From Bdellovibrionales bacterium RIFOXYD1_FULL_55_31 (GTDB taxonomy: Bacteria > Bdellovibrionota > UBA1018), in assembly GCA_001770175.1 (NCBI GenBank), contig MEQK01000086.1:1521-65520 (forward strand): 64,000 bases of DNA, written 5' to 3'. Numbering within the stretch: the stretch's first letter is position 1; the number at the start of each line of letters is the position of its first letter. This document shows positions 4,836 to 25,314 of the stretch, in pieces. The position numbers were made by a program, and so were the translations under genes. The notes under the pieces are model-generated. The model was given only the letters and a program-made list of their open reading frames with translations, searched no databases and was not told where the DNA came from.

Positions 4836-7151
4836 ATGAGCCTTTCGATCGTCTCGATCGTTCTGAGCGCTTCGGTCATCCTGATTTACGTGCTCCCAGT
4901 GGTCGAAGAGAAGCTCATCACCGAGAAACGGGCGGCCGTGCAGGATCTCGTCAATGTCGCTCTCCGCATTCTCAGCGATTCGCAGGCGAGGGTCGAACGT
5001 GGTGAGTTGGACGTCACCGAGGCCAAAAGACTCGCCGCTTCGAATATCCGCGGTCTTCGTTACAAGCACATCGATTATATCTGGATCAATGATCTCTCCT
5101 CGCGGATGATCATGCATCCCACGATTCCCAGCCTGAACGGCCTCGATTTGAAGAGTTTTAAAGACGCGAGCGGAAAGTTTCTTTTTCAGGAGTTCACGGA
5201 AATCTGTGAAAGCAAAGGTGAAGGATTCGTTGAATACAACTGGCCGGTACCCGACGGGACCGAACCTGCCCCGAAGCTTTCATTCGTGAAGCTCTTCAAA
5301 CCGTGGGGCTGGATTCTGGGAAGTGGTATTTACGTGGACGACGTCAAACGGGACATCCGGATCGTCGCGGCCAGGATTCTGACGGCCACGGCCGGATTCG
5401 TCATTCTGGCGATCATCGTGAGTTTTCTGCTCGCGCAGAGAATTTCACGTCCTTTGCGTAACGCCGTGGGCACGTTGAACGAAATCGCGGCTGGCAACCT
5501 CGGAGTGAGAATCGCGTCTTCAGGCACGGATGAGACCGGCCAGCTACTTTCGGCTATGAAGAACATGGTCGAGAATCTCAGGCAAAGCGATGAAGCGCTT
5601 CGGGCAAGTCGGCTTCGTTATCAGATGCTTTTTGAGAGAATGCTGGACGGGTTTGCCCTGTACACGATGATTCGCGACGAAGGGGGCGTTGTTCGGGATT
5701 ACCGGTTCGTTGAGGTGAATCCCGCGTTTGAGCGCATGATCGGGCTGCCGAAGGACGAGCTTATCGGACAGACGGTCCAGGATGCCATGCCTTCGGATAA
5801 TAACCCATATTGGGTCAATCTTTACGAAAAAGCCGCCAGATCCGGCGGTAGCACGCGTTTCGAAACTTACGACCGGCGGCGCGACCGACATTACGAGGTT
5901 TCGGCATACAGCCCCGCCCCGGGCCAGTTTGCGACGATTTTCACCGACATTAGCGATCGAAAGCGGATGGAATCTGAAAAAGGAAAGATTCAGGACCAGC
6001 TTTTTCGGGCTTCCAAACTTGCCACGATCGGCACGCTTGCCGCCGGCGTGGCACACGAAATTAATAACCCGCTTACGATCATCGACGGGAATATCGGTAT
6101 CATTCGCGATCACCTTCTCGAAAAAGGTGGCGCCGCGGACGACCGAGTTTTCGATTTACTCCAGAAGCAGGAGAAGGGGGTCCGGAGAATAGCGAACATC
6201 GTGAATGGGTTGCGATCCTATGCGCGTGCCGACAACGATACGCTGCAAAATACGAATTTGAACAAAGTGATCACCGACACGGTGCTGCTGGTCGAGGAGA
6301 TTTATCGGAAAGCCGATATCGAGGTAACAACCCGACTTTCTTCCGAACCGCTTTTCGTGCGCGGAAATCCGGGGAAGCTCCAGCAGGTTTTGATGAATCT
6401 GGTCGCGAATGCAAAAGACGCCCTCTGCTCCCGGGATGGCGACCGGCGGATCACGATCGTGAGCGCGGCCGTGGGCGAAACGAGTGTCATGGAAGTCATC
6501 GATAACGGCGAAGGGATCTCCCCGAAGGACATCGATCACATTTTTGATCCGTTCTATACGACAAAGCCTGTCGGAGCGGGTACTGGCCTGGGGTTGGCGC
6601 TGACCTATTCGATCATTACCTCCATCGGCGGTAAAATCGAGGTCGAATCGAAACCGGGGCAGGGGTCCAAATTTACGGTGACGCTGAACGGTGCTGTTAA
6701 GGACGAAAAAATGGTGGAAGAAATCATGTTGCCGCAGGCCAAACCTGGCAAGCTCGAAGGCAGGGCTTTGTTGGTCGATGACGAAGATGGCGTGAGGGAT
6801 ATCGTGCGGAAGTACCTCGAAACTTTCGGACTTGAAGTCACTGAAGCCGAGAATGGCGCGGTCGCATTGGAAAAACTTAAATCCGGTATTTTTGATTTCG
6901 TCATCACCGACATGAAAATGCCGAAGATGAACGGCGATGTTTTGGTCACCGAAGCGAAAAAGCTGAACCTGCCCAAGTGCGTGCGCTACCTGGTCATCAC
7001 GGGGGGGCTCGCGGGAGACAACGAAGCGGATGACGACTCGGGGCTACGGGGCGAATACGGCGCGGACGGATATCTTCGCAAGCCGTTCAATCGAAAGGAT
7101 TTGCTTCACGCTTTAGAGAAAATATCAGAGCTAGCCCCGGTCTCGGACTAA
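4836..7151 (+). CDS. hybrid sensor histidine kinase (periplasmic Cache-like sensor, HAMP, PAS, HisKA, HATPase, C-terminal receiver)
   Basis: TM helix at N-terminus (MSLSIVSIVLSASVILIYVL) and a second TM before a HAMP-like segment. PAS-like block (FVEVNPAFERMIGL). H-box AAGVAHEINNPLT. N/G boxes (LMNLVANAKDA, DNGEGIS, GTGLGL). C-terminal REC (ALLVDDEDGVRD...FVITDMKMPKMNG...KPF). Start chosen at the ATG at 4836; the track ORF extends upstream to 4656 and overlaps the previous gene. Confidence 0.85.
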   Translation: MSLSIVSIVLSASVILIYVLPVVEEKLITEKRAAVQDLVNVALRILSDSQARVERGELDVTEAKRLAASNIRGLRYKHIDYIWINDLSSRMIMHPTIPSLNGLDLKSFKDASGKFLFQEFTEICESKGEGFVEYNWPVPDGTEPAPKLSFVKLFKPWGWILGSGIYVDDVKRDIRIVAARILTATAGFVILAIIVSFLLAQRISRPLRNAVGTLNEIAAGNLGVRIASSGTDETGQLLSAMKNMVENLRQSDEALRASRLRYQMLFERMLDGFALYTMIRDEGGVVRDYRFVEVNPAFERMIGLPKDELIGQTVQDAMPSDNNPYWVNLYEKAARSGGSTRFETYDRRRDRHYEVSAYSPAPGQFATIFTDISDRKRMESEKGKIQDQLFRASKLATIGTLAAGVAHEINNPLTIIDGNIGIIRDHLLEKGGAADDRVFDLLQKQEKGVRRIANIVNGLRSYARADNDTLQNTNLNKVITDTVLLVEEIYRKADIEVTTRLSSEPLFVRGNPGKLQQVLMNLVANAKDALCSRDGDRRITIVSAAVGETSVMEVIDNGEGISPKDIDHIFDPFYTTKPVGAGTGLGLALTYSIITSIGGKIEVESKPGQGSKFTVTLNGAVKDEKMVEEIMLPQAKPGKLEGRALLVDDEDGVRDIVRKYLETFGLEVTEAENGAVALEKLKSGIFDFVITDMKMPKMNGDVLVTEAKKLNLPKCVRYLVITGGLAGDNEADDDSGLRGEYGADGYLRKPFNRKDLLHALEKISELAPVSD

Positions 7152-7156
7152 GTTCA

Positions 7157-7543
7157 TCAAACCGCGATGTCGACATCGCGTTCGAGCTGTTTTGCAGCGT
7201 TTCGCGACCCGATTTTTCGGGACGAGTAGACGCCAAAAAGATAGCCGCTCATGAATACGATCATCCAGACCGTGAGAGGGCGCTCTTTCACCAGTCGCAG
7301 GCCTTCTTCTGTGGAACTTTGTACTTCATTCAGGATCCGCCCCGCGGAATCCTTCGCGCTATGAACGAATTCTTCCACCGATGTTCGCGTCTGTTCCGCG
7401 TAGGATTCCATCGTTTGGCGCTTTTCGTCGAGATAGGCTTCGGCAGACTGGATTCGGTCCTTAAGGTGGTCGAGTGCCTGCTCGAATTGTTTCGAGCTGT
7501 TCTGCATTGCCTCTTCGGCTCTTTTGATTTCGGTTTGACTCAT
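7157..7543 (-). CDS. DUF883/ElaB-YqjD-like membrane-anchored protein
   Basis: 128 aa, charged coiled-coil N-terminal part and a single C-terminal TM (LTVWMIVFMSGYLFGVY), architecture of ElaB/YqjD/YgaM family. Confidence 0.55.
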   Translation of the reverse strand: MSQTEIKRAEEAMQNSSKQFEQALDHLKDRIQSAEAYLDEKRQTMESYAEQTRTSVEEFVHSAKDSAGRILNEVQSSTEEGLRLVKERPLTVWMIVFMSGYLFGVYSSRKIGSRNAAKQLERDVDIAV

Positions 7544-7968
7544 GCAACCCTCCCTTTGGTCGTCTGCGCGACTTCATCCAGTTTCTTTTCCGTCACTGCT
7601 ACTTGCTGCTGCAAGCCGCGCCGCGTGTGAGGAAAACTCAGGTCTTCGTGTAAAACTTTGCGATAAGCCGAAAGGGCCAGTCCGCCGCCTACGGCCATGA
7701 ACCCGACACCCACGATCAGGGCACTCAGCCAGTAATTTTCCTGCAACAGGCGGCCGAGGCCGATCACCGCGAACGCGAGAATCGGCAGGATTCCCAACGC
7801 CGCGACTGCTCCGAAAAGCGCGGCTTGCAGCACGTGCTTACTCAGCTGGCCGGTGATGTCCGTCACCTCCGCGCGTGCAAGGCGGACTTCAGCCCGAAGT
7901 ATATCGCGTAAGCTTGACGCTAGCTCGGCGGCGATTCCCGATAACGAGCCCCCATTTTTTTTATCCAT
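7540..7968 (-). CDS. YqjE-like / phage-holin-family small membrane protein
   Basis: 142 aa with two TM helices (ALFGAVAALGILPILAFAVIGL; LSALIVGVGFMAVGGGLALSAY). 4-nt overlap with downstream DUF883 gene, mirroring the E. coli yqjD-yqjE pairing. Confidence 0.5.
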   Translation of the reverse strand: MDKKNGGSLSGIAAELASSLRDILRAEVRLARAEVTDITGQLSKHVLQAALFGAVAALGILPILAFAVIGLGRLLQENYWLSALIVGVGFMAVGGGLALSAYRKVLHEDLSFPHTRRGLQQQVAVTEKKLDEVAQTTKGRVA

Positions 7969-10022: not shown

Positions 10023-10123
10023 AAAGTGGCTGCTGAAGCGCTTAACCGTGATTTAACTTTTAAACTTCTTTGGCAAGAACTGTTCGGATATTGTCAAAAT
10101 CGGTGTATTGTCGGGCCATCGAA

Positions 10124-11758
10124 ATGAAACGATTTACTGATTCGATGTCACCCCTGACGACTTTTTTCGGGTTTATCGCGGTCTTGTGCCCCGTCTTGGT
10201 CGTCTTTCATCCGAGCCTTTCGGAGCTGGCCGTAGTTTACGCACTCGACTTCGTTGCGCTTTATATCGCTCATCTGATCGATCGTCGCACATTCCTGAAA
10301 CTCCACCCGGACACAGCTTTGTTTTTTCCTGAACCCGATCACGAGAAATTCAAAGCTCTCTCCCTCGACGGCAAGATCGCCCTTCTCAATTCGCTCATTC
10401 GGTTTCCCCAACGCAGAGCGCTTTATTTCTTCCTCGTCAGTTTTTTGAAAGTGACCCCCGTGATGTTGGTGATCACTTTCGCGTGGGAACCCGAGGTTTC
10501 GAGACTTGACCAAGCCCTGAAGATACTCACGATTGAACTCATCGTGAACGCGTACATTTACGGGTCCGTATTCATCGAATTTCATCGATTTGTGTCGACC
10601 CAAATCGCTGAATTTCATGAAAAGTATGACTGGAGCGACGCTTTCTCGAAAATCGACTACCCTGATCCGAAGCGGGAATTCGCGCTTCAGGAAAGCATTT
10701 CGCTGCTTTGTGTAATGGTATTCATGCTGGCTTTGCAGTGGCTCGTCGTGTGGAACGATCCGATCAGTGATTCACGCAAGGAAGCGGTCGAAGTGATTCT
10801 GGTCGGGGCTTCCGGCTTTCTCCTGTTCGCACGGATCTGGTACCTCGGCCGACACTATTTCACGGGCGGTCTTCAGGAACTTTTCAAAAGATTCGAATCT
10901 TTTGACTACGAAAGACGGGATATGAGCATCCCGCTGCATTCGTCGGCACTTCTGGCGCGTTTCGAAAGGACCTTCAATACGCTCACGGAACGGCTTCGCG
11001 CGAATGAACGCCAACTTTCGGAATGGTTGGTTCGAGAAGCCGAGCAGCACCGGTTCCGGGCGCTTGGCGAGGTTTCAGGGCTGATCGCGCATGATCTTGC
11101 CGGCCCTTTGCACGCGATTCAGTTTTGCGCGCAGGAACTCCAGGAAAATCCCGAACGCCTGAATAGCAGAAAATACCTCGAGCAGCTCACGCTTAACACG
11201 GACCGCTGCGTTGAACTTATCAAATCGCTCCGGGCGTATCTCAAGGAACCCGAGGTTCGGAAGTCTTCGGTGCTTTTCGGGGAGACGCACGATTACGTAT
11301 TGCGGCTCTTGAGGACCCAATTTCAGAACCAGGGGTTCGAGAAGATCCGCTTCATTCTGGAACCGGCTTTAGTGGAGGTCAGGTTTGCCGTCGCGCATGT
11401 TGACATGGTTCACATTCTCTACAATCTATATAAGAACAGCATCGAAAATTTCATCGCGCATGGAAACGGCGATCCCGAGATTCAAATTGGCGTCCTGGCG
11501 GACGCCGCTGAAACGTTGCAGCTGTTCATCAAAGATAACGGTTCCGGTTTGGGAGTCGCCGAATTCGAAGACCTGACGGCTTTTCAATTCTCCCGGCCTG
11601 CGCCGATGAAAAAATCAGAAAGTGTCGGGTTGCGGCTGACCCGCCGTTTGATTGAGCGAGGGGACGGGACTCTCAGTGTTGTTCCCGGTCCAGGCTTCGG
11701 GACGATGTTCAGCCTAACGCTTCGGAAAAAAGTAAATTTCACAAAGGCGGCTCTATGA
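10124..11758 (+). CDS. sensor histidine kinase with multi-TM N-terminal domain
   Basis: Several N-terminal hydrophobic helices. H-box GLIAHDLAGPLHAI. HATPase boxes (YNLYKNSIEN; IKDNGSGLG; GLRLT). Start uncertain (10070 or 10124). Confidence 0.8.
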   Translation: MKRFTDSMSPLTTFFGFIAVLCPVLVVFHPSLSELAVVYALDFVALYIAHLIDRRTFLKLHPDTALFFPEPDHEKFKALSLDGKIALLNSLIRFPQRRALYFFLVSFLKVTPVMLVITFAWEPEVSRLDQALKILTIELIVNAYIYGSVFIEFHRFVSTQIAEFHEKYDWSDAFSKIDYPDPKREFALQESISLLCVMVFMLALQWLVVWNDPISDSRKEAVEVILVGASGFLLFARIWYLGRHYFTGGLQELFKRFESFDYERRDMSIPLHSSALLARFERTFNTLTERLRANERQLSEWLVREAEQHRFRALGEVSGLIAHDLAGPLHAIQFCAQELQENPERLNSRKYLEQLTLNTDRCVELIKSLRAYLKEPEVRKSSVLFGETHDYVLRLLRTQFQNQGFEKIRFILEPALVEVRFAVAHVDMVHILYNLYKNSIENFIAHGNGDPEIQIGVLADAAETLQLFIKDNGSGLGVAEFEDLTAFQFSRPAPMKKSESVGLRLTRRLIERGDGTLSVVPGPGFGTMFSLTLRKKVNFTKAAL

Positions 11759-12438
11759 TCGCTGAAAAAAGAATTTGGATTTTGGAAGATGATCCCGGCG
11801 TGAAATTCGTTTACGACGAGATCCTCGGCATCCGTTACAAGCTTTTATATTTTACGGCGCTTGCGGAGTTCCGGAATGCCCTTCTCGAGAGCCCTGCGGC
11901 GGATAGACCGGAATTGGTGATCGCCGACATTACCTTGCCGGATGGCTGTTTTCTGCATTTCCTTTCTTCCGAGGAGGTAACGAGGCTCTTTGAGACTCCC
12001 TTTATCATCATTTCGTCGATGGATGACGTGGATGCGTTGCGGTTCTGTTTCGAAGAAGGCGCATTGGATTATATTATCAAGCCGTTTCAGAAATCAGAGC
12101 TGATCGTGAAAGTCGAACGTGCCTTGAAGCGGAATGCGGCCGAGCCGCCGATCGTCGAGGACCCCTGGGGCGATCGGATCCTTGAAAAACTTCCCGCGAC
12201 TTACGGGAAAGTGCCGCATCTCACGCTAAAAGAGCATGAGATTCTCTCCCTCTTTTTGGAGGCAAAAGATTACACTCTGTCCCGGCACGAGATCGTTAAG
12301 CGCGTCTGGGGTAATGTCAAAGTTTATCCCAAAACCCTGGACGTTCATCTTTATAATCTGCGGCGAAAGATCCACGAGACCGGAATGAAGATCAAGGCCA
12401 ACGGCCTGGGCCGTTGGACTCTGATTAAGAAGGCCTGA
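11755..12438 (+). CDS. OmpR/PhoB-family response regulator (REC + winged-helix)
   Basis: ATGA overlap with upstream kinase. REC features (ILEDD, VIADITLPDG, IIISSMDD, IIKPF). C-terminal trans_reg_C-like segment (TLKEHEILSLFLEAKDYTLSRHEIVKRVWG...LDVHLYNLRRKI). Confidence 0.8.
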   Translation: MIAEKRIWILEDDPGVKFVYDEILGIRYKLLYFTALAEFRNALLESPAADRPELVIADITLPDGCFLHFLSSEEVTRLFETPFIIISSMDDVDALRFCFEEGALDYIIKPFQKSELIVKVERALKRNAAEPPIVEDPWGDRILEKLPATYGKVPHLTLKEHEILSLFLEAKDYTLSRHEIVKRVWGNVKVYPKTLDVHLYNLRRKIHETGMKIKANGLGRWTLIKKA

Positions 12439-12459
12439 GCAATTGCCCTAAATGGTCGC

Positions 12460-13497
12460 TTAGGCGATGGGATGAATGAATAGCTCCGGCGAAAGCTGCG
12501 GAATCAGCTCTTGATAGCCGTGCCCGAAAATCAAGGGCAGGCGATCCGGTGCTATGGCTTTTGCCACCGCGAGCTTTCCAACGAGATTTTCTGGAGTGAT
12601 GTCGACAAAAAGAAATTCCTCTTTGTGCTTTGGCGCGGTCTCAAGCGGCGCCTTCCCCCGGTGCGCGCCGTCCAGCCAACAGCGGACCTTGGCCGCGCCT
12701 TCTTGGCCAAGAAAAACTTCCTGGTGGTAATTCGGGGTGGGCGAAAACGGAGGCGCTTCTGTCATTTGCTGGTCCCATAAAAAACCAAGCCGCTGCAGGC
12801 ACTCATTTTGCGCATGGCTGACAGCATCGGCAAGATTGGATCCCGAGCCGAATCCGAACACGAACAGGCGGTCCTTGTTTTTCGGGAAACAGAAAATTCC
12901 GACTACCTGAGCGGAATCAGGGGAGGACCTTGAGTCTTCAAAAAGGTAGGTTTCTGGCGAGTAATGCTGAGTCAGGTGATCGCGAATCTCCCAACCGGCA
13001 TGAATTGAATCGGGTAGCCTTTGCGGGATCGGTCCGCCGAACCAGGAGCGCAGTAGCCGGTCACGTTCGATGAGTTCGAGGGATGCGCGGTCACATGCTC
13101 CCGAAAAGTCGGAAAAAGTCGCCACACCATTGGATTTCGAGTAGCGGGACTTTTCGGGGGTTGTGTCCTCCGGAAAAACGGATTCAGCAATGACTTCGCG
13201 GAGCATCGCCCCGGCCGCCGTGCGAATGTGCAGCCGGTGCTTGTCGCGTTTCATTTTGGTGAGGATCTCAAGAACACTGACACGCTCGACCAGTTCGAAG
13301 AACGCCCGATCGACGGGAGGTGTGTTGATTTGGGCCGCGCTCGCGGTAACGATCCGGCCATCCTGGTGTCGAATGCTCAAGCCGACGAGATGGACGGGGC
13401 TACCGAGTTCGGAAAGGACTTCGTGAAAACTTTCCGGAACAGACCATTCGGGGGGGAGCGGGTAGTTGTTCAGGTATTCGTTGAGAAGTATTTTCAT
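12460..13497 (-). CDS. YcaO-domain protein (small, 345 aa)
   Basis: Two YcaO hallmark blocks: TASAAQINTPPVDRAFFELVERVSVLE and SNGVATFSDFSGACDRASLELIERDRLLRSWFG (the SA..E..ER and ElIERD ATP/Mg-binding motifs). Confidence 0.65.
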   Translation of the reverse strand: MKILLNEYLNNYPLPPEWSVPESFHEVLSELGSPVHLVGLSIRHQDGRIVTASAAQINTPPVDRAFFELVERVSVLEILTKMKRDKHRLHIRTAAGAMLREVIAESVFPEDTTPEKSRYSKSNGVATFSDFSGACDRASLELIERDRLLRSWFGGPIPQRLPDSIHAGWEIRDHLTQHYSPETYLFEDSRSSPDSAQVVGIFCFPKNKDRLFVFGFGSGSNLADAVSHAQNECLQRLGFLWDQQMTEAPPFSPTPNYHQEVFLGQEGAAKVRCWLDGAHRGKAPLETAPKHKEEFLFVDITPENLVGKLAVAKAIAPDRLPLIFGHGYQELIPQLSPELFIHPIA

Positions 13498-13533
13498 GTG
13501 AGGAATCTCGGAATCGGGGTGGCCGCGGGGGGC

Positions 13534-13575
13534 TAAAAAGAACCCCCCTTTCAGTGAAGAAAGGGGGGGTAAATC
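13534..13575 (-). terminator. rho-independent terminator between GNAT-like gene and YcaO gene (minus strand)
   Basis: CCCCCCTTT-CAGTGAAG-AAAGGGGGG hairpin (13545-13572). On the minus strand it is followed by a UUCUUUUUAGC tract (complement of 13534-13544). Confidence 0.55.
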
Positions 13576-13643
13576 TCACTCAATTAGAAGCAAATAAGTG
13601 CGAATTGCTTTTTCATAACATGACTCCTTTCATGTGGATTTCC

Positions 13644-14384
13644 CTATGATGTCCCCGATGGAGACCGTAAGGATCTTTTGAGCTGGTGCTGCATGCCCAG
13701 GCAAAATTGATTGAGGAAGGCTGTTTCGTGTTTTCGGCTGAAGTACTTGGTGAAGCGGGCCGTCGCGCCCCATCGTTCGGAGTTGGTCATGCCGGTGATG
13801 TTAAATCCGAGCTTGTTCAGGATATGGACCTGCCTCAGGTTTGATAGTGCGATATCAGCTTCAGCCCGTTCGACGTTGTTGTCGGCCAAAATCGAAAGAA
13901 GATGACCGAAGAAGGGCTGGAAAATATTCCGGTTCTGGTATTCGGGAAGAATCGAGACATTGCGAAGGTAGTAGGTGCTCCAGTCGAGTGGATTGCCGAC
14001 AAGAACGCCGATCGTTTTCTCTCCGTCTTTGAAGGCAAAGAAATCGGCGGCCTCGCGATAAAACCGGTTCTTTGCCTCGCTTGCCTCAAAGCACAGAAAA
14101 GGCGTGGTGTTCAGGTCTTCTTCATAGATACTGCCGAAGTTGGGAGCAAGGAAGTGCGCGACCGTTTCAAAGGAGCTGAGTTGAACCGTCAGATGAGGGG
14201 TTGCGGCTGAGGTCTCGCCCGGAATCTCGAAAGGGAAGTAGGTACTCCAATTCAAGTTCCAGATTCGAGTTGAAAGCCAGCCCTGCCAGGTGGAGTCTTG
14301 ATCCCAAGCGGCGTGTCTGTCGCTTTCAGCGGTTTCGGTCGGCCTTCCAAAATGGAAGGGCCGCCCCAATCCTCTCTCTTGCAT
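13644..14384 (-). CDS. GNAT-fold acyltransferase-like protein
   Basis: 246 aa; VSILPEYQNRNIFQPFFGHLL resembles GNAT motif A (V.PeyQg.Gig..L), preceded by beta-rich region. Assignment from motif resemblance only. Confidence 0.45.
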   Translation of the reverse strand: MQERGLGRPFHFGRPTETAESDRHAAWDQDSTWQGWLSTRIWNLNWSTYFPFEIPGETSAATPHLTVQLSSFETVAHFLAPNFGSIYEEDLNTTPFLCFEASEAKNRFYREAADFFAFKDGEKTIGVLVGNPLDWSTYYLRNVSILPEYQNRNIFQPFFGHLLSILADNNVERAEADIALSNLRQVHILNKLGFNITGMTNSERWGATARFTKYFSRKHETAFLNQFCLGMQHQLKRSLRSPSGTS

Positions 14385-14855
14385 TTCCCCTCCATGGGCG
14401 TTCCAGAAAACGTACTCTGATTCTGATCAAGGTGGCCGGCAGCGTCGACTTAAGTTATTTTAATCCGCTCGCCCGAGCGGTTAAGGAATGTTAAACGATC
14501 CCGCAGGGTTCCGGTCAGGGGGAAATTCTAAAAAGTTTTCTTGAGTAGTGCTCCCGGAAGAGTGGGGGATCTGTTTGGCGCGGCGCTCCGAAAGTGGTGG
14601 TCGCTCCGGTAGCTCGGCGGAAAGTTCGTACGAGCTAAACTAAAGTAGTGTCGAAGACCTTTCGTTAGCATCGGGTGGATGCGACGATCGGGTTCGTCCA
14701 TGCGCTCGACTTTGAACTGCTCGGTTTATGAGCGATAACCCTGGAATCTATTCAAAAATGTGAGTTTGAAACACGTCCTCTAACCTCCCGGTATTACTGA
14801 AAATAATTTGCGTTTGGAATGGTTCTATCATAAACTAAGTTGATAGGAGTTCGTC

Positions 14856-15125
14856 GTGACAGAAAAGGAAAAAGCTGCAGCTTCAAAAATTGCGAAGGTC
14901 ATCAAAACAGCGCGGAAGCATCGCGCGCTCACTCAGCACAATGTCGCTGAGCACTTGGGAGTTTCTCAAAGCGCGGTTTCAAAAATGGAGAATGGGTTGG
15001 TCATTCCCTCTGCCATCCAATGGTATGACTTCTGTGTTCTGACCGGCATCCGCGCAGAGAGTCTCTGTTCTGGTGAAATGGAATTTACTAATACGGGTCT
15101 TAAACGCCGCTCCGCGCGCGTCTAG
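14856..15125 (+). CDS. XRE-family helix-turn-helix protein with ~35 aa C-terminal extension
   Basis: GTG start with AGGAG 8 nt upstream. RKHRALTQHNVAEHLGVSQSAVSKMENG is a classic HTH_XRE segment. C-terminal tail contains two Cys (FCVLTG...SLCSGEMEF). Confidence 0.7.
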   Translation: MTEKEKAAASKIAKVIKTARKHRALTQHNVAEHLGVSQSAVSKMENGLVIPSAIQWYDFCVLTGIRAESLCSGEMEFTNTGLKRRSARV

Positions 15126-15182
15126 AGTTTAAGAAAAATTAAATCGCTCTGATCGCCTGAGCCTCGTAGCCTGACAGGTACG

Positions 15183-16904
15183 ATGTCACACGTTATTTTG
15201 GTTACGTACTCAGGATATATCAAAACTCCATCTTCTCTTGCGCTGGACAACGGCCTTGCGAATCTCGCGGGTGCGCTGATCCAGGCTGGTCACGAGGTCT
15301 TGATCGAGGACTACAACCGGCTGTCGATTCTCGAGAAAATGACGCCTCCGGGAATTTCTGAAATGGCGACAGAGGCGTTCAAAGCTGCAAACACGGCCAG
15401 TTCTGATTCCTTCGCGCGGATTCGTGAGCTTCAGGACAAACTCGATTCTTATCAGGAGAGAATCGTGGGCGAGATTTTCGAGGATCTCTCGCGCCTGATC
15501 GTTCAACATCGGACGTCCGTGATCGGCTTCAAATGCTGGGGAAGTGACGGGGCCGCGGCGGTGAAACGGTGGTGCGAGTTGATTCGCGGCCGATTCCCGG
15601 AGCTGAAGATTCTCCTGGGGGGCTCCTGCTGTTCGGTCGCGCCGGAGCACACCGCTCGTTATATCGGCAACTTTGATCTGATGGCGATCGGCGAGGCGGA
15701 AGAGAGCATTCTCGGAATGCTGGAACACTTTGAAGGTCGGCGTGCCCTTTCGGAAGTTTCGGGTGTGTTGTACCGCGATCCTCGGGTGCCGAAGGACGCG
15801 GAGCCACGATATATCAAGAATCCACCCGCGCTTCTCAAGGATCTCGATCAGCTGCCGTATCCGAACTACAGCCGCGAAGTTTATCCATCCGCCTGGACCG
15901 GCGAGAAGCTGAACATGGTCGTTCTCGACGAGAGCCGGGGCTGCCCCGTTCAGTGTAATTTCTGTGTTCATCCGACTTATGCCGGTTCCTGGAGAGTCAA
16001 ATCGGCTGCGCGCATCGTTGAAGAAATCAAAGCCATCCAGTCGCTCATGGGTACACGGTATTTCAGGCTAGCGGGTTCGAATACGCCTCCTTCGGTTTTG
16101 AAACAGATGGCGCGCAGGGTGCTTGATGAAGGCATTGACATGCGATTTTCCTGCTTTCTGCATGTCAACTCCGTTAAATCCGAGGACCTTCCTCCGTTGA
16201 GAGAGGCCGGACTCAGGTGCGTATTTTACGGAATAGAATCCGCTGATGATCGGCTGTTGAAGGAAGTCGCGAATAAGAAGACGAACGCGGACAGGATGTA
16301 CCGGGTTACGAAAGCCACGACGGAGCAGAGAATATTCACGACCGGAAGCTTTATCTATCCCATGCCGTTTGAAACGCCTGAGTCGCGGGAAAAGACCGTT
16401 ACGTTCATTAAAGATCTTTTTGGCGGCAACGCCTACGCGTCGGCGCAGTTTCTGAATCCCGCGCCGATGCCCGATACCGAGTGGTGGCGCGAACGTCGCA
16501 AGTACGGGTTTGAGTTCAATGATGCCGAGTACATTCTCAAGATGATTACGTCGCCCGTCAGGCATATGTTCCCGCCTGAGCTTCAGGAGCTTCTGCCTTA
16601 CCGTCTTCAGGGCAAGACGCATCGGGATCTTGCCAATGAACTCGGTGCTTTGATCGCCGAGCTCAAGAACGATAAGGTGATCTATAACATCAGCGACGAC
16701 GTTGCGATCATCGCGCACGGCTGCGGCATGCATCCAAGTCGACTCAAAGATGAGCTATTGCCTGCTTTCATGTTCGGTGATCTCCAAAAGATCCGGAAGA
16801 TGATCGAAGACTTCAACGCAAAACGCTGTCGCTCCGAGCGGCCGTTCGCTACGTTTAAAGAACCGAATCGACGATCGCCCGAGCTTCCTCTTGGATCTGC
16901 TTGA
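15183..16904 (+). CDS. B12-binding domain radical SAM protein
   Basis: 573 aa. N-terminal Rossmann-like B12-binding-type region (ILVTYSGY...[11 protein letters not shown]...[11 protein letters not shown]). Radical SAM CxxxCxxC motif CPVQCNFC at ~residue 255. No SPASM-type C-terminal Cys cluster seen. Confidence 0.8.
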
Positions 16905-18486
16905 GGTGGGGCTTGCCGTTGAAGCTCTCGGCGTAAATTTTGTAAACGTCTTCAGTTCCTGACGGACGAGCCGCGAACCAGCCGTTCTCGGTCACGACTT
17001 TCAGGCCGCCGATGGAAGCGTTGTTTCCCGGTGCACGAGTGAGTTTCGCGATGATCGGTTCGCCCGCCAGTTCCGAAGCTTTCACGGATTCGGGCGCGAG
17101 ATTGGCGAGCGCTGCCTTCTGCTTCGCCGTCGCCGGTGCGTCCATCCGTTCGTAAACCGGGCTTCCGAATTTCGCTTCCAGTTCACGATAGATTTCTCCC
17201 GGGTCGCGCTTCGAGCGAGCCGTGATTTCTGCGGCAAGCAGGTTCAAAATGATGCCATCCTTGTCCGTCGTCCAAACAGTTCCATCTCTTCTCAAGAAGG
17301 AAGCGCCCGCGCTTTCCTCGCCGCCAAAACCGAAGGTCCCGTCGATCAGGCCATCGACGAACCATTTGAAGCCAACCGGGACTTCACAAAGTTTCTTGCC
17401 GAGGTGGGCGGCGACGCGATCGATCATTGAGCTTGAAACCAGGGTTTTACCAATCGCGGAGGAGGGTTTCCAGCCGGGCCGATTTTGGAACAAGTACCAG
17501 ATCGCGACTGAGAGATAGTGATTCGGGTTGAGCAGGCCCGATGATTTTGTGACGATTCCGTGCCGATCGGTATCGGGGTCGTTTCCAAAGGCGATGCTGA
17601 AGCGATCTTTCAGCTGAATTAAGCCGGCCATCGCGTAAGGGGATGAACAATCCATCCGGATCTTCCCGTCTTTGTCCACGGTCATGAAAGAAAAGGTCGG
17701 GTCTACCGAGCGGTTAACGACTTCGATTTTCAGCCGATAGCGGTCGGCGATCGGGTCCCAGTAGTTGATCGCGGCGCCACCGAGCGGGTCGACGCCCAAA
17801 GTCAGCCCAGCCGAGGAGATCGCTTCGAGATCCACGATATTTGAAAGGTCCGCGACATAGGGGGCAATGAAATCATAACGGTGCGTGGTCGAACTCTGGA
17901 TGGCCTTCGAAAAGGGCGTCCGTTTGAGTCCGTTCAGACCATTCGCGAGCATTTCGTTCGCACGCTTCTCGATCGCCTGAGTCATCCGGGTGTCCGCTGG
18001 CCCTCCGTGTGGAGGATTGTATTTGATCCCTCCATCGCCGGGCGGGTTGTGCGAGGGTGTAATGATCAATCCGTCAGCCAAACGTGGAGGTTTGCTGCGG
18101 TTATAACTCAGAATCGCGTGGGAAATCACGGGAGTTGGAGTATAGCCGAGATCTGCTTGGATGTAGGTGTCGACCCCATTCGCGGCAAGCACTTCGAGAG
18201 CGCTGATCATTGCGGGCTCCGAAAGGGCGTGCGTGTCCATTCCCAGGTAAAGCGGTCCCGTTGTTCCTTGCACCGAGCGGAATTCGCAGACCGCCTGAAC
18301 AATCGCCAATAGGTGATCTTCATTGAAGCTGCTGTTGATTGAAGAACCGCGATGCCCCGATGTGCCAAATGCGACCCGTTGGTTCGGGTCCGAAGCGTCC
18401 GGCTTTTGGGAGTAGTACATGGCCACGAGTCGAGGGGTGTTGACGAGGATGTTTCTGGGTGCGGGTTTGCCTGCAAGCGGATTCAT
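16855..18486 (-). CDS. pgm: phosphoglucomutase (alpha-D-glucose phosphate-specific)
   Basis: 543 aa; GTSGHRG active-site serine loop, [14 protein letters not shown] and overall length typical of Pgm. Confidence 0.9.
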
Positions 18487-19500: not shown

Positions 19501-21120
19501 CTAGAATAGTGTCTTCGGCTGATAATTAATGATGATCTGGTCCGTGTTGGCCAAGCTGAGGAGGAAATCCAGATCGGTGATGGTCAGAACCTTTCCGCTC
19601 ACGGTGAACTGAGACGGCAAGAGGACGGTCAGGGTTCCATCGGCGTGCTTGATCGCGACCGTCATTTCTTCGGTTGTTGTTGGCGCGCGTTGAAGCTGGA
19701 AAATGGCCTTCTTGTTCAAGATCGCCATCCCGATCGCGTCGAGCATGGGCGAGTAGTCGGGGTTGTCGATTTCCATCACGCTCGAGCCGTTGGCGACGAG
19801 ATTGCCGAGTTCAATGAATCGATCGGCGCGGTCGAGCTCGTTCGAACTGCGCTGAGTCCTGAGATTTTGGACTGAGGCCGCCGTGGAGGCCACGATGGAT
19901 ACCACGAAGTAATTCGGGTTCTCTGTCGCGCCCGTTTGGTCCAAGGTGTGGAAAAAGGTGTCGATCTGACCTTTGATGTCGGCGACCGGGACCAGCTTGG
20001 TTGGATCCGGGCATGACGGTACCGTGAAAGAAACCCCGTCGATCAATTTCGTGCAGGTCGCCGCATCGGTCGTATAGTAACTGTTCGCCAAGAAACCGGT
20101 GTAAGGCGCCGGAGGAATGATCATGGTCTGATCTTCTTCGTCTCCGACGAGAACAATGACTCGAAGGGAATCCTTTCGAAAGAACGCCGTAGGCGAACCG
20201 GCAACTTCATTATCAGCAAGGAGTTGTTGCAGGGAAGCGAGTCCACGTTCGTAACCGATTCCCGTCACACCCACGCTCAAATTGACAAGAAAGTCCTGGA
20301 TCAGACGCGCGGTCCACGCGGCATCGGTGGGGGTTCCGGCGGGGGGAATAGTGGCGATGATCGATCTTCCGGAGTGCACGGTATCGTTCATCGGCGTATT
20401 CACGCACTGACTGGCGCTCGTTTCGCCGGAGCCTGGATACGCACAGCGTTCCGGGCCGGTGTTTCCGGTTTGATCGTCACGTATGTAGCACTTTGAAACG
20501 TCAGTGGCGGAAATGAAAAGCGCATTTGCCTCATGGCAAAGCGCAATCATGGGGCCGTCGTGGTTGCCGGGAAGAAGCTTTGCCCAATTCGGGCCGAGTT
20601 GCGGTCTGCCTTGGTTCACCTTGAGTCCTGCCGTGAATTTGCCGTAGTCCGGGCTTGCCGGGTTCATGTTCACGAGATTGGGCGCCCAGGGGGGGTTCAC
20701 GAACGGAGTGCTTCGGCCCGGAATGCCGTTCGCGGTGATTCCGCGAAGGTAGCTTGACTGTGCTGGGCTGCCGACGGGGACCTGGTAGAGGTTGAGGTAA
20801 TTAGTAAATGCAGGGTGCGCAAGGTACGTATCCGTTGTGATCACCGCGACCCGGATATCCCAGTTTGGCTTCATGTATTTTTGCGCAAAACCACTGAAGC
20901 CATCCCGGATTCGCTGCTGAGAGACGTCCATGCTTCCGGAGTTGTCGATCACCCAGAGCATATCGAGCTTGGTGTTGATTTCCTGGCTCGTGGCGAAAAC
21001 TTCCTCTTGTTGCGCCAGGCGAAAGGAGCCTGGCAGTTGGCCTGTGCAGCCCGAAAGGAGATTGATCCCGATGATGCTAACTGAACAAATCACCAGTTTT
21101 TTCAAACACCTTATCGTCAT
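19501..21120 (-). CDS. von Willebrand factor type A domain lipoprotein
   Basis: Signal/lipobox (LLSGCTGQ). MIDAS motif LDMLWVIDNSGSMDVSQQRI (DxSxS) and later VAVITTDT. 539 aa. Confidence 0.7.
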   Translation of the reverse strand: MTIRCLKKLVICSVSIIGINLLSGCTGQLPGSFRLAQQEEVFATSQEINTKLDMLWVIDNSGSMDVSQQRIRDGFSGFAQKYMKPNWDIRVAVITTDTYLAHPAFTNYLNLYQVPVGSPAQSSYLRGITANGIPGRSTPFVNPPWAPNLVNMNPASPDYGKFTAGLKVNQGRPQLGPNWAKLLPGNHDGPMIALCHEANALFISATDVSKCYIRDDQTGNTGPERCAYPGSGETSASQCVNTPMNDTVHSGRSIIATIPPAGTPTDAAWTARLIQDFLVNLSVGVTGIGYERGLASLQQLLADNEVAGSPTAFFRKDSLRVIVLVGDEEDQTMIIPPAPYTGFLANSYYTTDAATCTKLIDGVSFTVPSCPDPTKLVPVADIKGQIDTFFHTLDQTGATENPNYFVVSIVASTAASVQNLRTQRSSNELDRADRFIELGNLVANGSSVMEIDNPDYSPMLDAIGMAILNKKAIFQLQRAPTTTEEMTVAIKHADGTLTVLLPSQFTVSGKVLTITDLDFLLSLANTDQIIINYQPKTLF

Positions 21121-23304: not shown

Positions 23305-25314
23305 ATGGACTTAATCGCACCGAACCCATTGAATCGCCAATTCGAGGCGAAGACCCTCCTGGTCATTCTGCTCTGTTCAGGGCTGGCCGCCTTTGGTGGC
23401 TATCGACTCTATTCCGATCTCGATTCCGGCGGGTTGGTCCATCAAGGCAAAACGATGGCGAGAGTTGAGCGGCGCGAGGCAAGAGTACGGTACAAAACGC
23501 CCGCGAGTTTTGTATGGGAAACGGTCGAACAGGATCAAAGTCTTTATGAGCACGAGTCGGTTCAGACCGGCCACGCAAGCGCCGCGGTGATCCGCATGAG
23601 CGGCGGAGCCACTCTTGAGCTGGGCGAAAACAGCCTGATCGTTCTGAACGAAGTCGACAATCTCGCGCTCAACTTCGTGAAAGGATCGGCGGTCGTGCAC
23701 GAGTCTTCGGGCGATCGTCAGATCAGCATGAGCAAGGACGGCAAGGTGAGCGTCGAAAAGCTCAATATCCGCCTGCTCAATCCCGGTCCGCTGGCCGAGT
23801 ACTTCGTTTCGGGCGGCGAGGCGAAGTCGATTCAGTTCGAATGGGACAAGCCGGGTGAGTTTTTCGTCGAGGTTTCCAGGGATCGGACATTCAGCGCCGC
23901 GCGAACCGATCGGATTCCCGCGGATGCGGGCAAGAAAACTTTTGCGGCCAAGTCTCTCGCCGTAGGCAATTATTATTGGCGGGTGACCGGAGCCGAGGGG
24001 ACGCATAGCCAGGTCCGGGCTCTCCGTGTTTCGACGGCATCGCCGCTTCAGCTCCTGAGTCCCTCCGCGATGGAGAGAGTCCGTGCTTTTGGCGACGTCG
24101 CGGATCTGCAATTTCGTTGGATGCCTTCTCAGACCAGTCTTGCGACGAATCCCGATGTCCGGCATCAGCTGGAGATTTCGGCCGATCCGGCTTTCAAGAA
24201 GGTCGAGGAAACGCAAGACGTGTTCCCGAACAGTGGGAACGCAATTGTCCGGACCGCGGCTTCCGGCAGTCTTTTTTGGAGGATCAGAAGTCATTACGGA
24301 GATCTGGTTCTTTCGAGCCCGGTTGAGAAGTTCACGCTGGAGCGAACGGATAAGGTGCTCCTCGAACTGCTGCGACCGGCCGAGAATGATCAGCTGGCTC
24401 TCGGAGCTCCGGTTCGCTTTACCTGGAACGCGAATGCCGGTGATCTCGAGTACGCGTGGGAAATTCAGGATTCTAAAGGTACCCGGCTCGCGACTTCGAA
24501 GGGACCTGTTCCGGGTACTCTCTGGAAGGACACCGGCCCTGGGGCTTATCGCTGGCGCGTCGTCGCGTCGTGGAACGGGAAATCCGTCGGCGAGTCCTCC
24601 TGGCGCCCGTTCTCGATTTCGAGCGGAAGTCCTCTCGTTCTCTTGACCCCGGCCAAAGACGAGAAGTTTGTTTTTTGGGAAAAGGAATTGCCGCTCTCCT
24701 TTCGTTGGCAAAAGGACGCGCTTCTTGAGCGACCCGAATATTCCTACGTTATCGAAGTCGCGGCTGATCGCGAATTCAAAGGAACGCTCTTGACGAAGAC
24801 CTCCCGCGCTCCGCAGCTGGCCGAAGCGACGATTCCGCCCTCGGCTATTCCCGATGAGCCGCGGGCCTTCTTCTGGAAGGTGAAGGTCACCGATTCCTCC
24901 GGAAAAATCGTGAAAACGAGTGAACCTCTTTCCTTCTTCTATGGACGGTACCCCAGGCTTGCCGCGCCTCAGTCGGTGATGCCCGCGGCGATTTTCAATC
25001 TTCGTGACGATAAAAAGGTTCCCCTCATCGAGTGGGCAGCCGTCGAGGGTGCGAAGGGCTATGAGGTTTCGGTCTTCCGGATCGAGCCCAAAAATAATGG
25101 ACGCGGACCGGCCGCTGAGCAGGTCATTGTGAAACAGCTCGTTCCGGACGCGAAATTCGAGTTTTCGAAGCTCCCGGTCGGAAAGTATCACTGGAATGTC
25201 CGCGCGCTGGACCGGATCGACCGCCCCGGGCAGCCCAGCGCTCGCGGAGAGTTCGAGGTCAGTTACGGAAAACCCCTGCGCGCGCCCAAAGTTCGCAGCG
25301 CCGAGGTGCAGTAG
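23305..25314 (+). CDS. membrane-anchored FecR-domain protein with ~5 tandem Trp-containing Ig/FN3-like repeats
   Basis: N-terminal TM/signal anchor (LLVILLCSGLAAFGGYRLY). FecR-like block (SGGATLELGENSLIVLNEVDNLALNFVKGSAVV). Repeats each carrying a conserved aromatic-W motif (YYWRV, LFWRIRS, AYRWRVVA, FFWKVKV, YHWNVRA). A paralog occurs at 62720. Confidence 0.55.
   Translation: MDLIAPNPLNRQFEAKTLLVILLCSGLAAFGGYRLYSDLDSGGLVHQGKTMARVERREARVRYKTPASFVWETVEQDQSLYEHESVQTGHASAAVIRMSGGATLELGENSLIVLNEVDNLALNFVKGSAVVHESSGDRQISMSKDGKVSVEKLNIRLLNPGPLAEYFVSGGEAKSIQFEWDKPGEFFVEVSRDRTFSAARTDRIPADAGKKTFAAKSLAVGNYYWRVTGAEGTHSQVRALRVSTASPLQLLSPSAMERVRAFGDVADLQFRWMPSQTSLATNPDVRHQLEISADPAFKKVEETQDVFPNSGNAIVRTAASGSLFWRIRSHYGDLVLSSPVEKFTLERTDKVLLELLRPAENDQLALGAPVRFTWNANAGDLEYAWEIQDSKGTRLATSKGPVPGTLWKDTGPGAYRWRVVASWNGKSVGESSWRPFSISSGSPLVLLTPAKDEKFVFWEKELPLSFRWQKDALLERPEYSYVIEVAADREFKGTLLTKTSRAPQLAEATIPPSAIPDEPRAFFWKVKVTDSSGKIVKTSEPLSFFYGRYPRLAAPQSVMPAAIFNLRDDKKVPLIEWAAVEGAKGYEVSVFRIEPKNNGRGPAAEQVIVKQLVPDAKFEFSKLPVGKYHWNVRALDRIDRPGQPSARGEFEVSYGKPLRAPKVRSAEVQ

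Follow-up and report, generated by a model that had tools for sequence, protein, structure and literature searches.

A 64-kb stretch of a Bdellovibrionota metagenome-assembled genome (64,000 nucleotides, hereafter the window; identical contigs occur in GCA_001770075.1 and in JGI/ENA groundwater assemblies) probably carries a compact cluster of biosynthetic genes for a very small peptide that is made on the ribosome and modified after translation (RiPP). The cluster comprises a micro-open reading frame (micro-ORF) of ten codons and genes for a minimal stand-alone YcaO-domain enzyme, a GNAT-fold acyl- or acetyltransferase and a B12-binding radical SAM enzyme (rSAM), next to a two-component regulatory system. 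The first-pass annotation had called the region a candidate uncharacterised peptide or protein modification locus, and this is borne out: the 345-aa protein agrees with YcaO in sequence profile as well as in fold, the gene neighbourhood recurs in relatives, close relatives of the radical SAM gene share this module instead of accompanying lipid or cofactor genes, and a ribosomal protein S12 or rimO context was seen in none of 45 loci. All ORFs it had reported were found again at the same coordinates, and its domain assignments stand.

The micro-ORF lies on the minus strand at 13584-13616 (ATG AAA AAG CAA TTC GCA CTT ATT TGC TTC TAA) and encodes MKKQFALICF, a candidate precursor or substrate peptide recognised by sequence reading, conservation and codon-position signature. 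On this strand, the stop codon of the GNAT gene is followed by a Shine-Dalgarno sequence (AAAGGAG, 13624-13630) located 7 nt 5' of the micro-ORF ATG, by the micro-ORF itself and by a hairpin 15 nt past its stop codon. In nearly all loci taken into our analysis, a purine-rich Shine-Dalgarno sequence (AGGAG, GGAGG or AAGGA) precedes the micro-ORF. The first-pass annotation had rightly placed a terminator between the GNAT and YcaO genes, but had identified no precursor with confidence; the ten-codon candidate lies at exactly this place.

Related loci were obtained from one-genome-per-species collections (41 loci, together with an alignment of the YcaO family) and three more were reached via the rSAM. 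The first search demanded only an ATG-AAR-AAR beginning and a length of 7-16 codons, with no requirement for the penultimate residue. It detected a micro-ORF beside cluster genes in 25 listed loci, while few other matches lay elsewhere. Three further loci with a micro-ORF were found when GTG and TTG starts were allowed, and two rSAM-derived loci yielded two more. In total, the window included, there are 29 listed copies of 9-10 codons, encoding 27 distinct peptides in Bdellovibrionota and Myxococcota. They follow the consensus M-K-K-(K/R/Q/L or absent)-F-A-x-x-[C/T/S]-[F/L/V/M/Y]. All 29 copies have Cys (13), Thr (9) or Ser (7) in the penultimate position, and the last residue is Phe in 17, Leu in 8, Val in 2 and Met and Tyr in one each. 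A relative with 83% identity encodes the identical peptide with a synonymous change (TGC to TGT), a Bacteriovoracaceae contig whose YcaO is 37% identical to that of the window encodes MKKKFALLSF, and a Polyangiaceae contig encodes MKKKYATGTL.

Non-redundant related loci (633 kb) contain 28 matches to the family pattern, and the window exactly one; no match occurs in the reversed sequence or in any of five shuffles. At the four invariant residues K2, K3, F5 and A6, codon positions 1, 2 and 3 show a mean nucleotide entropy of 0.05, 0.05 and 1.11 bits, respectively. Ala is encoded by all four of its codons, Ser by both codon families (TCN and AGY), and each of the three stop codons occurs. Since third positions vary over fixed first and second positions and codons are mixed, selection acts on the encoded peptide and not on an RNA or DNA motif. 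The micro-ORF start overlaps the stop codon of the preceding GNAT gene (ATGA) in 9 of 29 loci, and 11 further micro-ORFs are at most 31 nt from the preceding long ORF (GNAT where detected), which makes 20 of 29 in total. In Oligoflexus-type loci, the micro-ORF stands ahead of the gene for an oxidase described below. We regard the micro-ORF as very probably a genuine gene that is functionally linked to its neighbours.

Two other precursor candidates were considered and rejected. ORFs of at least 20 aa in the non-coding gap between the divergent GNAT and helix-turn-helix (HTH) genes (471 bp, 14385-14855; about 470 bp in the first-pass annotation) are not conserved and have no convincing Shine-Dalgarno sequence. 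The Cys-containing tail of the HTH protein belongs to a gene that is not conserved past close relatives.

To compare gene sets, proteins of the window and of diverged loci were used as tblastn queries against all loci (about 45). The micro-ORF accompanies YcaO proteins 28-42% identical to that of the window, in two phyla. The core consists of micro-ORF, YcaO and either the B12 radical SAM enzyme or a haem-oxygenase-like di-iron oxidase of about 220 aa. The rSAM is present in the window and in L007, L008/L013, L012, L016, L025, L052 and L053 (L numbers designate the related loci), the oxidase in the remaining complete loci. No locus contains both, and sister YcaO lineages hold one or the other. 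In the YcaO tree the rSAM type appears at least twice, and the rSAM locus L008 is sister to the oxidase locus L028. Gene order differs (micro-ORF-YcaO, micro-ORF-oxidase-YcaO, YcaO followed at a distance by GNAT-micro-ORF-oxidase, as well as divergent and convergent arrangements), but the micro-ORF is always found within the cluster. GNAT is located upstream of the micro-ORF in most loci and its linkage to YcaO spans two phyla. rSAM, GNAT and YcaO are again found together with a histidine kinase and response regulator in Bdellovibrionota in which YcaO shares 35-40% identity with that of the window and the genes around the module differ from locus to locus. The neighbourhood conservation check suggested by the first-pass annotation thus turned out positively. 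A PADLOC scan gave no defence-model match for YcaO, GNAT or oxidase, only generic HTH matches and one weak match of the rSAM.

The hairpin behind the micro-ORF (13533-13568, minus strand; CCCCCCTTTC-loop-GAAAGGGGGG followed by a T-tract, z = -2.8) has the structure of an intrinsic terminator or attenuator, with a 10-bp stem at 13543-13568 and then TTCTTTTT, and lies 35 nt 5' of the YcaO start. A strong hairpin is found about 5-30 nt past the micro-ORF stop in nearly every locus. Sequences of these hairpins are unrelated and only some carry a T-tract; the hairpin belongs to a conserved unit of micro-ORF plus hairpin. An Rfam scan of 12000-17500 returned only sub-threshold chance matches over the terminator and no known riboswitch or leader.

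A short ORF and a terminator-like hairpin ahead of an enzyme gene form the classical layout of an attenuator. The micro-ORF could accordingly be a cis-acting regulatory leader, whose translation governs termination at the hairpin, with the enzymes acting on another, unlinked peptide or protein. This would agree with the absence of features usual in RiPP clusters, namely a division into leader and core, a protease and an exporter, and with the best fold matches of the YcaO protein, which are of the protein-modifying kind. Such protein-modifying YcaO enzymes exist, as exemplified by thioglycine formation in methyl-coenzyme M reductase (MCR). However, the gene 3' of the micro-ORF is not constant: it is YcaO in the eight rSAM-type loci and the oxidase in most others, while in L034 the micro-ORF is convergent with YcaO and has nothing downstream. 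It is the upstream GNAT gene, often with ATGA overlap, that is the constant neighbour. Moreover, conservation is at the amino acid level over two phyla, with strict Cys/Ser/Thr and no regulatory codon runs, a pattern not shown by leaders that sense amino acids, and hairpins in high-GC Myxococcota loci often lack the T-tract. A leader of this type is quite improbable in our estimate, and we consider the micro-ORF peptide itself to be, with fair likelihood, the substrate of the YcaO enzyme.

The YcaO gene occupies 12460-13497 of the minus strand. Its 345-aa product matches the Pfam YcaO family (PF02624) over residues 113-317 with 44.3 bits (gathering score 25.7). It contains both signature blocks, FELVERVS (residues 66-73) and LELIERDRLL (140-149), and neither varies within the family. 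Among 32 family members, E68/E71/R72, S122, E141/E144/R145, E232/Q235 and a C-terminal H-P are invariant. Assignment of the ExxER acidic and Arg residues to the ATP-Mg2+ site rests on published YcaO structures. The AlphaFold model (AF2; predicted local distance difference test score, pLDDT, 93.5) represents a complete YcaO domain, and the best 39 matches in a Foldseek search against PDB are all YcaO proteins (template modelling scores 0.5-0.59), several of which have a similar length. The closest solved structures by sequence profile are TruD, MusD and LynD (E 1e-8 to 2e-6), followed by archaeal thioamide YcaOs; the central block of the protein aligns with the ATP/Mg region of the former three (SNG...ELVERD block). 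With invariant acidic ATP/Mg motifs, a confident model and YcaO fold matches, the enzyme looks catalytically competent, and its sequence predicts an ATP-dependent enzyme that activates backbone amides.

The small size compared to E. coli YcaO, pointed out in the first-pass annotation, is real, as about 240 additional C-terminal residues of the E. coli protein are absent. Nevertheless it is no anomaly: the domain is complete and its length is comparable to McbD (396 aa) and Methanopyrus kandleri YcaO (377 aa). The same annotation was also right that no E1-like or TfuA partner is fused to this bare domain. Neither an E1-like, Ocin-ThiF or RRE (RiPP recognition element) domain in the YcaO protein nor a gene of this kind in the Pfam-annotated neighbourhoods was found, no TfuA family match is recorded in any annotated locus, and no FMN-dependent McbC-type dehydrogenase is recorded in the annotated neighbourhoods. 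Exhaustive profile search identified 471 subfamily representatives at 50% identity (E <= 1e-30). Nearly all of the best 150 of these are 315-365 aa long, and this narrow range indicates a discrete YcaO subfamily. One protein in the representative library, P0309 (515 aa), is a YcaO of this subfamily with a 180-residue N-terminal extension showing weak co-linear similarity to the oxidase (E = 8e-4). It may be a fusion of oxidase and YcaO or an artefact of gene calling; as the similarity is weak, it was not used as evidence.

The rSAM gene (15183-16904, plus strand) encodes a class-B (B12-binding) enzyme of 573 aa, assigned with Pfam and NCBIfam. Both the Radical_SAM (58.3 bits) and the B12-binding (42.3 bits) domains score above threshold and the CxxxCxxC motif reads CPVQCNFC. 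All characterised equivalogs (ApyD, rSAM_ocin_1, HpnJ, BchE, PhpK and others) score below cutoff, the best profiles being ApyD (122 bits, cutoff 750) and rSAM_ocin_1 (113 bits, cutoff 282). Relatives of 47-60% identity lie in the same module, while a wider family of about 32% identity occurs in other contexts. The rSAMs of the clusters form two clades, of which clade 1 scores higher against non-cluster members of a widespread B12-rSAM family of about 550 aa than against clade 2. The alternative partner, the oxidase, shows a weak Pfam match to Haem_oxygenas_2 and a conserved, complete set of di-iron ligands (EExGH / E / HxxxDxxH). According to record titles, rSAM variants originate from groundwater, the Black Sea (150 m), a fen and 'Zod', and oxidase variants from Sorangium, Oligoflexus and Labilithrix. 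We infer that the rSAM is the tailoring enzyme of an 'anaerobic' cluster variant, in an anaerobic/aerobic replacement of the BchE/AcsF kind.

Peptides of the eight rSAM-type loci have Cys or Ser and no Thr at the penultimate position and end with an aromatic residue (seven Phe, one Tyr). Those of oxidase-type loci have Thr, Cys or Ser followed by Phe, Leu, Val or Met. This pattern could hint at the site of rSAM action, in a sample that is small and not phylogenetically independent. L008, the Bacteriovoracaceae locus, contains, in addition to its cluster rSAM, a second and unrelated B12-radical SAM gene (11442-12878, 478 aa) just past the histidine kinase gene. The 3' end of the rSAM gene in the window (16855-16904) overlaps a convergent phosphoglucomutase gene by 50 bp, and the same overlap is seen in L001 and L007.

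The GNAT gene (13644-14384, minus strand, 246 aa) is located directly upstream of the micro-ORF. Its product was assigned by Pfam (Acetyltransf_1, 30.1 bits versus 20.7), by fold and by a family alignment built from the fetched loci, as direct homologue search with a word index gave six proteins. The family is characterised by the motif DWS[TS]YY.R and a C-terminal helix or extension, RWG...TKFL...FL.QFC.G. The core of the model (pLDDT 80-95) matches single-domain amine N-acetyltransferases HP0935, PaiA, SpeG and RimI. Residues 1 to about 33 lack conservation in all but the closest relative, and the model shows them as disordered (pLDDT <50); translation may in fact begin further downstream.

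Presence of a GNAT gene next to a tiny ORF and hairpin resembles the layout of microcin C. A Trojan-horse toxin of the microcin C or trifolitoxin type can thus be envisaged, with the cationic N-terminal part serving as carrier for uptake by prey, the modified C-terminal dipeptide as warhead freed by peptidases, and GNAT as a self-immunity enzyme that acetylates the processed warhead and has no biosynthetic function. Trifolitoxin provides a precedent for combining a YcaO-like enzyme with an immunity GNAT: the former is proposed to install a thiazoline, and TfxH acetylates the processed toxin and thereby confers immunity (bioRxiv 10.64898/2025.12.02.691738). GNAT is dispensable in Oligoflexus-type loci and its fold resembles small-amine and N-terminal acetyltransferases; the C-terminal residue of the peptide is variable (F/L/V/M/Y) and the carriers are predatory lineages, all of which would suit a toxin. 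On the other hand, the loci lack an MccB/ThiF-like adenylyltransferase, dehydrogenases of the TfxB/C type and an exporter, and no resistant target copy (e.g. an aminoacyl-tRNA synthetase) was seen in them. Translational coupling of GNAT to the peptide gene suits a biosynthetic partner at least equally well. The toxin hypothesis appears decidedly unlikely to us, and in the RiPP cluster that we favour, GNAT would be one of the modifying enzymes or provide self-protection.

The two-component system lies on the plus strand, beyond the YcaO gene. A polytopic membrane histidine kinase (10070-11758; gene callers begin at 10145, giving 537 aa) contains five or more hydrophobic segments and lacks a large periplasmic domain. 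Its partner, an OmpR-family response regulator (11755-12438), is encoded convergently with YcaO, from which it is separated by 21 nt; both were identified with Pfam. The first-pass annotation had noted this pair beside the locus, and the association is conserved. Full-length homologues of the kinase (27-41% identity) adjoin YcaO in ten related Bdellovibrionota/Oligoflexia loci besides the window, and homologues of the regulator (33-46% identity) hold the same position in related loci. In Bdellovibrionota, kinase and regulator are thus part of the module.

Conservation of the gene between GNAT and rSAM is different. The XRE-type HTH protein (14856-15125, plus strand, 89 aa; Pfam HTH_3, 38.5 bits) is probably a local regulator. 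Its gene is kept only in close relatives, L007 included. The slot upstream of the rSAM in L052, L053 and L008 is occupied by diverged small ORFs (99 aa in L053 and 222 aa in L052, both without recorded Pfam match). The HTH gene is lineage-specific and not a core member. From the four-gene combination put forward in the first-pass annotation, YcaO, GNAT and rSAM consequently remain, with the rSAM being one of two alternative partners, whereas the HTH protein does not qualify as conserved member.

Several observations weigh against a RiPP cluster with the chemistry favoured here. The peptide, its transcript and its product are predictions known from sequence alone. Annotated cluster neighbourhoods contain no conserved RRE, E1-like partner, FMN dehydrogenase, protease or exporter, which leaves recognition, release and export of the peptide unexplained. 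GNAT was not detected in Oligoflexus-type loci. Where it is present, the acetyl-CoA pyrophosphate loop is non-canonical ([Y/H]-Q-G/N-R-x-hydrophobic, with no second Gly, compared to Q/R-x-x-G-x-G/A), so that the acyl donor is uncertain. In L029 (7138-7164) of Sorangium sp. So ce1128 (CP181432.1), the sole cultured genome found and the only complete one among the loci, the motif has no stop codon: ATG AAG AAG TAC GCC ACT CTC TGT GCA (MKKYATLCA) runs in frame into the di-iron oxidase ORF (7138-7959), in the gene order micro-ORF-oxidase-YcaO-GNAT. Fusion of the two, decay of this copy and an error in sequencing are all conceivable. Furthermore, a homologous YcaO is encoded in 11 of about 45 loci in which neither peptide, GNAT nor oxidase could be detected in its vicinity. 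Finally, three features of the YcaO enzyme are unexpected for azoline formation. Its best fold matches are thioamide-forming archaeal YcaOs (M. kandleri and Methanocaldococcus jannaschii), the SagD/TOMM cyclodehydratase model TIGR03604 (NCBIfam) scores 44.1 bits against a cutoff of 219, and the protein ends with HP[IV]A, within an invariant H-P-[I/V]-[A/T/V] of the family, instead of the PxPxP of azoline-forming YcaOs. We take PxPxP to be the defining C-terminal motif of these enzymes, to which the single-Pro H-P end is possibly analogous.

Most of the orphan YcaO loci are interspersed among complete clusters on the YcaO tree, and their partners may therefore be unlinked or lost. Search of these loci with a relaxed pattern found no diverged micro-ORF within the fetched sequences. 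Neighbours of the orphans are unrelated (APS/PAPS reductase, DUF1697, OmpA). L031, L032, L039 and L047 form one orphan clade, in which peptide, GNAT and oxidase are all missing. Two of its members were checked (L031, 6848-7945; L047, 6907-7962), and in both YcaO lies directly downstream of an ordinary APS/PAPS reductase gene (NF002537, 272 bits), which may be coincidence or reflect a link to sulfur metabolism.

The features of YcaO listed above suit another chemistry on the same peptide: formation of a thioamide, formation of an amidine or macroamidine via the N-terminal or a Lys amine, or ATP-dependent cleavage. Thioamides are made by TfuA-independent archaeal YcaOs, (macro)amidines are known from bottromycin and streptamidine, and MusD catalyses ATP-dependent peptide cleavage. 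In addition to the fold matches with the M. kandleri and M. jannaschii enzymes and the absence of both a cyclodehydratase partner and a PxPxP terminus, two invariant lysines and the free N-terminus are available as nucleophiles, and MusD is among the closest sequence matches. Against this, the strict penultimate Cys/Ser/Thr (29/29) is best explained as a nucleophile, the conserved gene set comprises no TfuA or sulfur-transfer gene, and the closest sequence matches are azoline-forming heterocyclases. We consider these other reactions rather unlikely. For an azoline at the penultimate Cys/Ser/Thr, the chances are close to even.

From the observed genes, their conservation and linkage, and the selection on the peptide, we infer the following chemical steps and biological role for the RiPP cluster. 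GNAT and micro-ORF would be co-transcribed, and the hairpin would let only a part of transcripts pass into YcaO, giving much peptide and little enzyme. A high peptide-to-enzyme ratio set by a hairpin is also seen for other precursor genes. AAA and AAG codons behind the ATG may also help an ORF of this small size to be translated. The peptide is divided into six conserved N-terminal and four variable C-terminal residues, which could act as mini-leader and core. Since the YcaO enzyme has no RRE, MKK-x-FA is taken as the conserved recognition handle, while the variable C-terminal part ends with [Cys/Ser/Thr]-[hydrophobic]. The stand-alone YcaO would bind the peptide directly and, with ATP, activate the amide carbonyl of residue 8, which would be attacked by the side chain of residue 9 to form a thiazoline in the case of Cys. 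Relatives with Ser or Thr would yield an oxazoline or methyloxazoline. Cys, Ser and Thr are the nucleophiles used in YcaO cyclodehydration. A second modification would be introduced by the B12 rSAM here, C-methylation being the default expectation, and by the O2-dependent di-iron oxidase in aerobic relatives. GNAT would acetylate or acylate an amine of the cationic N-terminus, or acetylate the product for self-protection. The membrane kinase and OmpR-type regulator would control the cluster or sense its product.

Some further elements were noted in and around the cluster. A sigma-70-like promoter candidate for the GNAT/micro-ORF/(YcaO) transcript, TTAACC-16-TAAAAT, was located by consensus scan at 14457-14484 (minus strand), and the TAAAATAACTTAAGTCGAC block at this site is also kept in L007. 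No OmpR-type direct repeats were found in the intergenic region by the repeat and promoter scan. In both L052 and L053, the region separating the GNAT operon from that of the rSAM contains the same 16-nt near-palindrome, AGTAAAGTTTTCTTTA, which may be an operator. The equivalent gap of the window contains AAAGTTTTCTT (14532-14542), an 11-mer common to all three loci. Another copy of it in the window, at 23932-23942, falls within a coding sequence and is probably a chance occurrence. A 539-aa ORF at 19501-21120 (minus strand), with a lipoprotein-like N-terminus and without recorded Pfam match, adjoins the module in close relatives L001 and L007 and does not do so in diverged loci.

If the ten-residue peptide is the substrate, it is the smallest precursor known for any YcaO enzyme, and a bare YcaO domain recognises a peptide without leader, RRE or partner protein. 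This would be useful for studies of substrate recognition and for engineering of short peptides with modified backbones. With three or four genes and a peptide that can be synthesised, the system is small enough to be tested directly. The exchange between di-iron oxidase and B12 rSAM provides a natural experiment on O2-dependent versus O2-independent tailoring. The tight association with a two-component system in Bdellovibrionota points to a peptide used as signal or weapon by predatory bacteria, about whose chemical communication little is known. One may speculate that minimal leaderless YcaO-modified peptides form a new class, with 9-10 residues the shortest YcaO substrates known, and are diffusible signals in Bdellovibrionota, read by the co-conserved polytopic histidine kinase and OmpR regulator in an agr- or nisin-like autoinduction of Gram-negative predators, with the last four residues defining specificity groups and the second step, performed by the di-iron oxidase in aerobes or the rSAM in anaerobes, being essential. 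We consider this extended scheme unlikely.

The cluster type also marks a blind spot of genome mining. Filters for Cys/Ser/Thr-richness and minimum lengths would miss the micro-ORF in spite of about 470 YcaO representatives. RiPPER, for instance, reportedly applies a minimum peptide length of about 20 aa. Of earlier genome-mining surveys, one was restricted to Actinobacteria and the other required Cys/Ser/Thr-rich candidates. In the open full-text literature, outside which subscription journals lie, we found no description of the gene set, of the peptide or of a YcaO system with a precursor this short.

Among known systems, bottromycin biosynthesis (BotC/BotCD) is similar in having YcaO enzymes without E1-like or RRE partner, a B12 rSAM in the cluster, no N-terminal leader and a modification near the terminus. 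In bottromycin, a follower of more than 30 residues is recognised by the enzymes, and genes for proteases, a P450 and a transporter belong to the cluster. Here, in contrast, the whole precursor has 9-10 residues, and proteases, P450 and transporter are not conserved. In general, similarity of our YcaO to characterised families is marginal. With TruD, LynD and MusD it shares the SNG..(A)..ELxERD ATP/Mg region and a Cys/Ser/Thr nucleophile in the substrate. These enzymes, however, have about 780 aa with fused E1-like domain and RRE and need a leader, whereas the 345-aa domain is bare and about 12-15% identical to them.

Minimal precursors are known from biarylitides (a 5-aa precursor, MxYxH, cross-linked by a P450) and from microcin C (7-aa MccA followed by a hairpin, with a GNAT domain in the cluster). 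Our locus resembles both in that a minimal precursor gene escapes annotation and the cluster is compact, with one to three enzymes. The enzyme families differ, being P450 in the former and the MccB adenylyltransferase in the latter, and no ThiF-family gene that could stand for MccB is present in the annotated loci. In trifolitoxin and tiarins, too, a YcaO-like enzyme is proposed to form a thiazoline close to the C-terminal end of a short core, and the cluster includes a GNAT. Unlike our peptides, they are made from a 42-aa precursor with a leader, and their TfxB/TfxC dehydrogenases and exporter are absent here.

Replacement of the B12-rSAM by a di-iron oxidase in otherwise equivalent clusters recalls BchE and AcsF, an anaerobic B12-rSAM and an aerobic di-iron enzyme that serve one and the same step. 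The best profiles of our rSAM are nevertheless C-methyltransferases, and methylation and oxidation would give different products. As in nisRK and agrCA systems, genes for a peptide, for its modification and for a polytopic membrane histidine kinase and response regulator have stayed together; here, however, the kinase is of the HisKA type and the regulator of the OmpR type, instead of HPK10 and LytTR, and no processing or export protein accompanies them. None of these closest analogues combines the features of the locus, which most likely encodes a ribosomal peptide pathway that depends on YcaO, has an unusual set of partners and uses a leaderless precursor shorter than any precedent.

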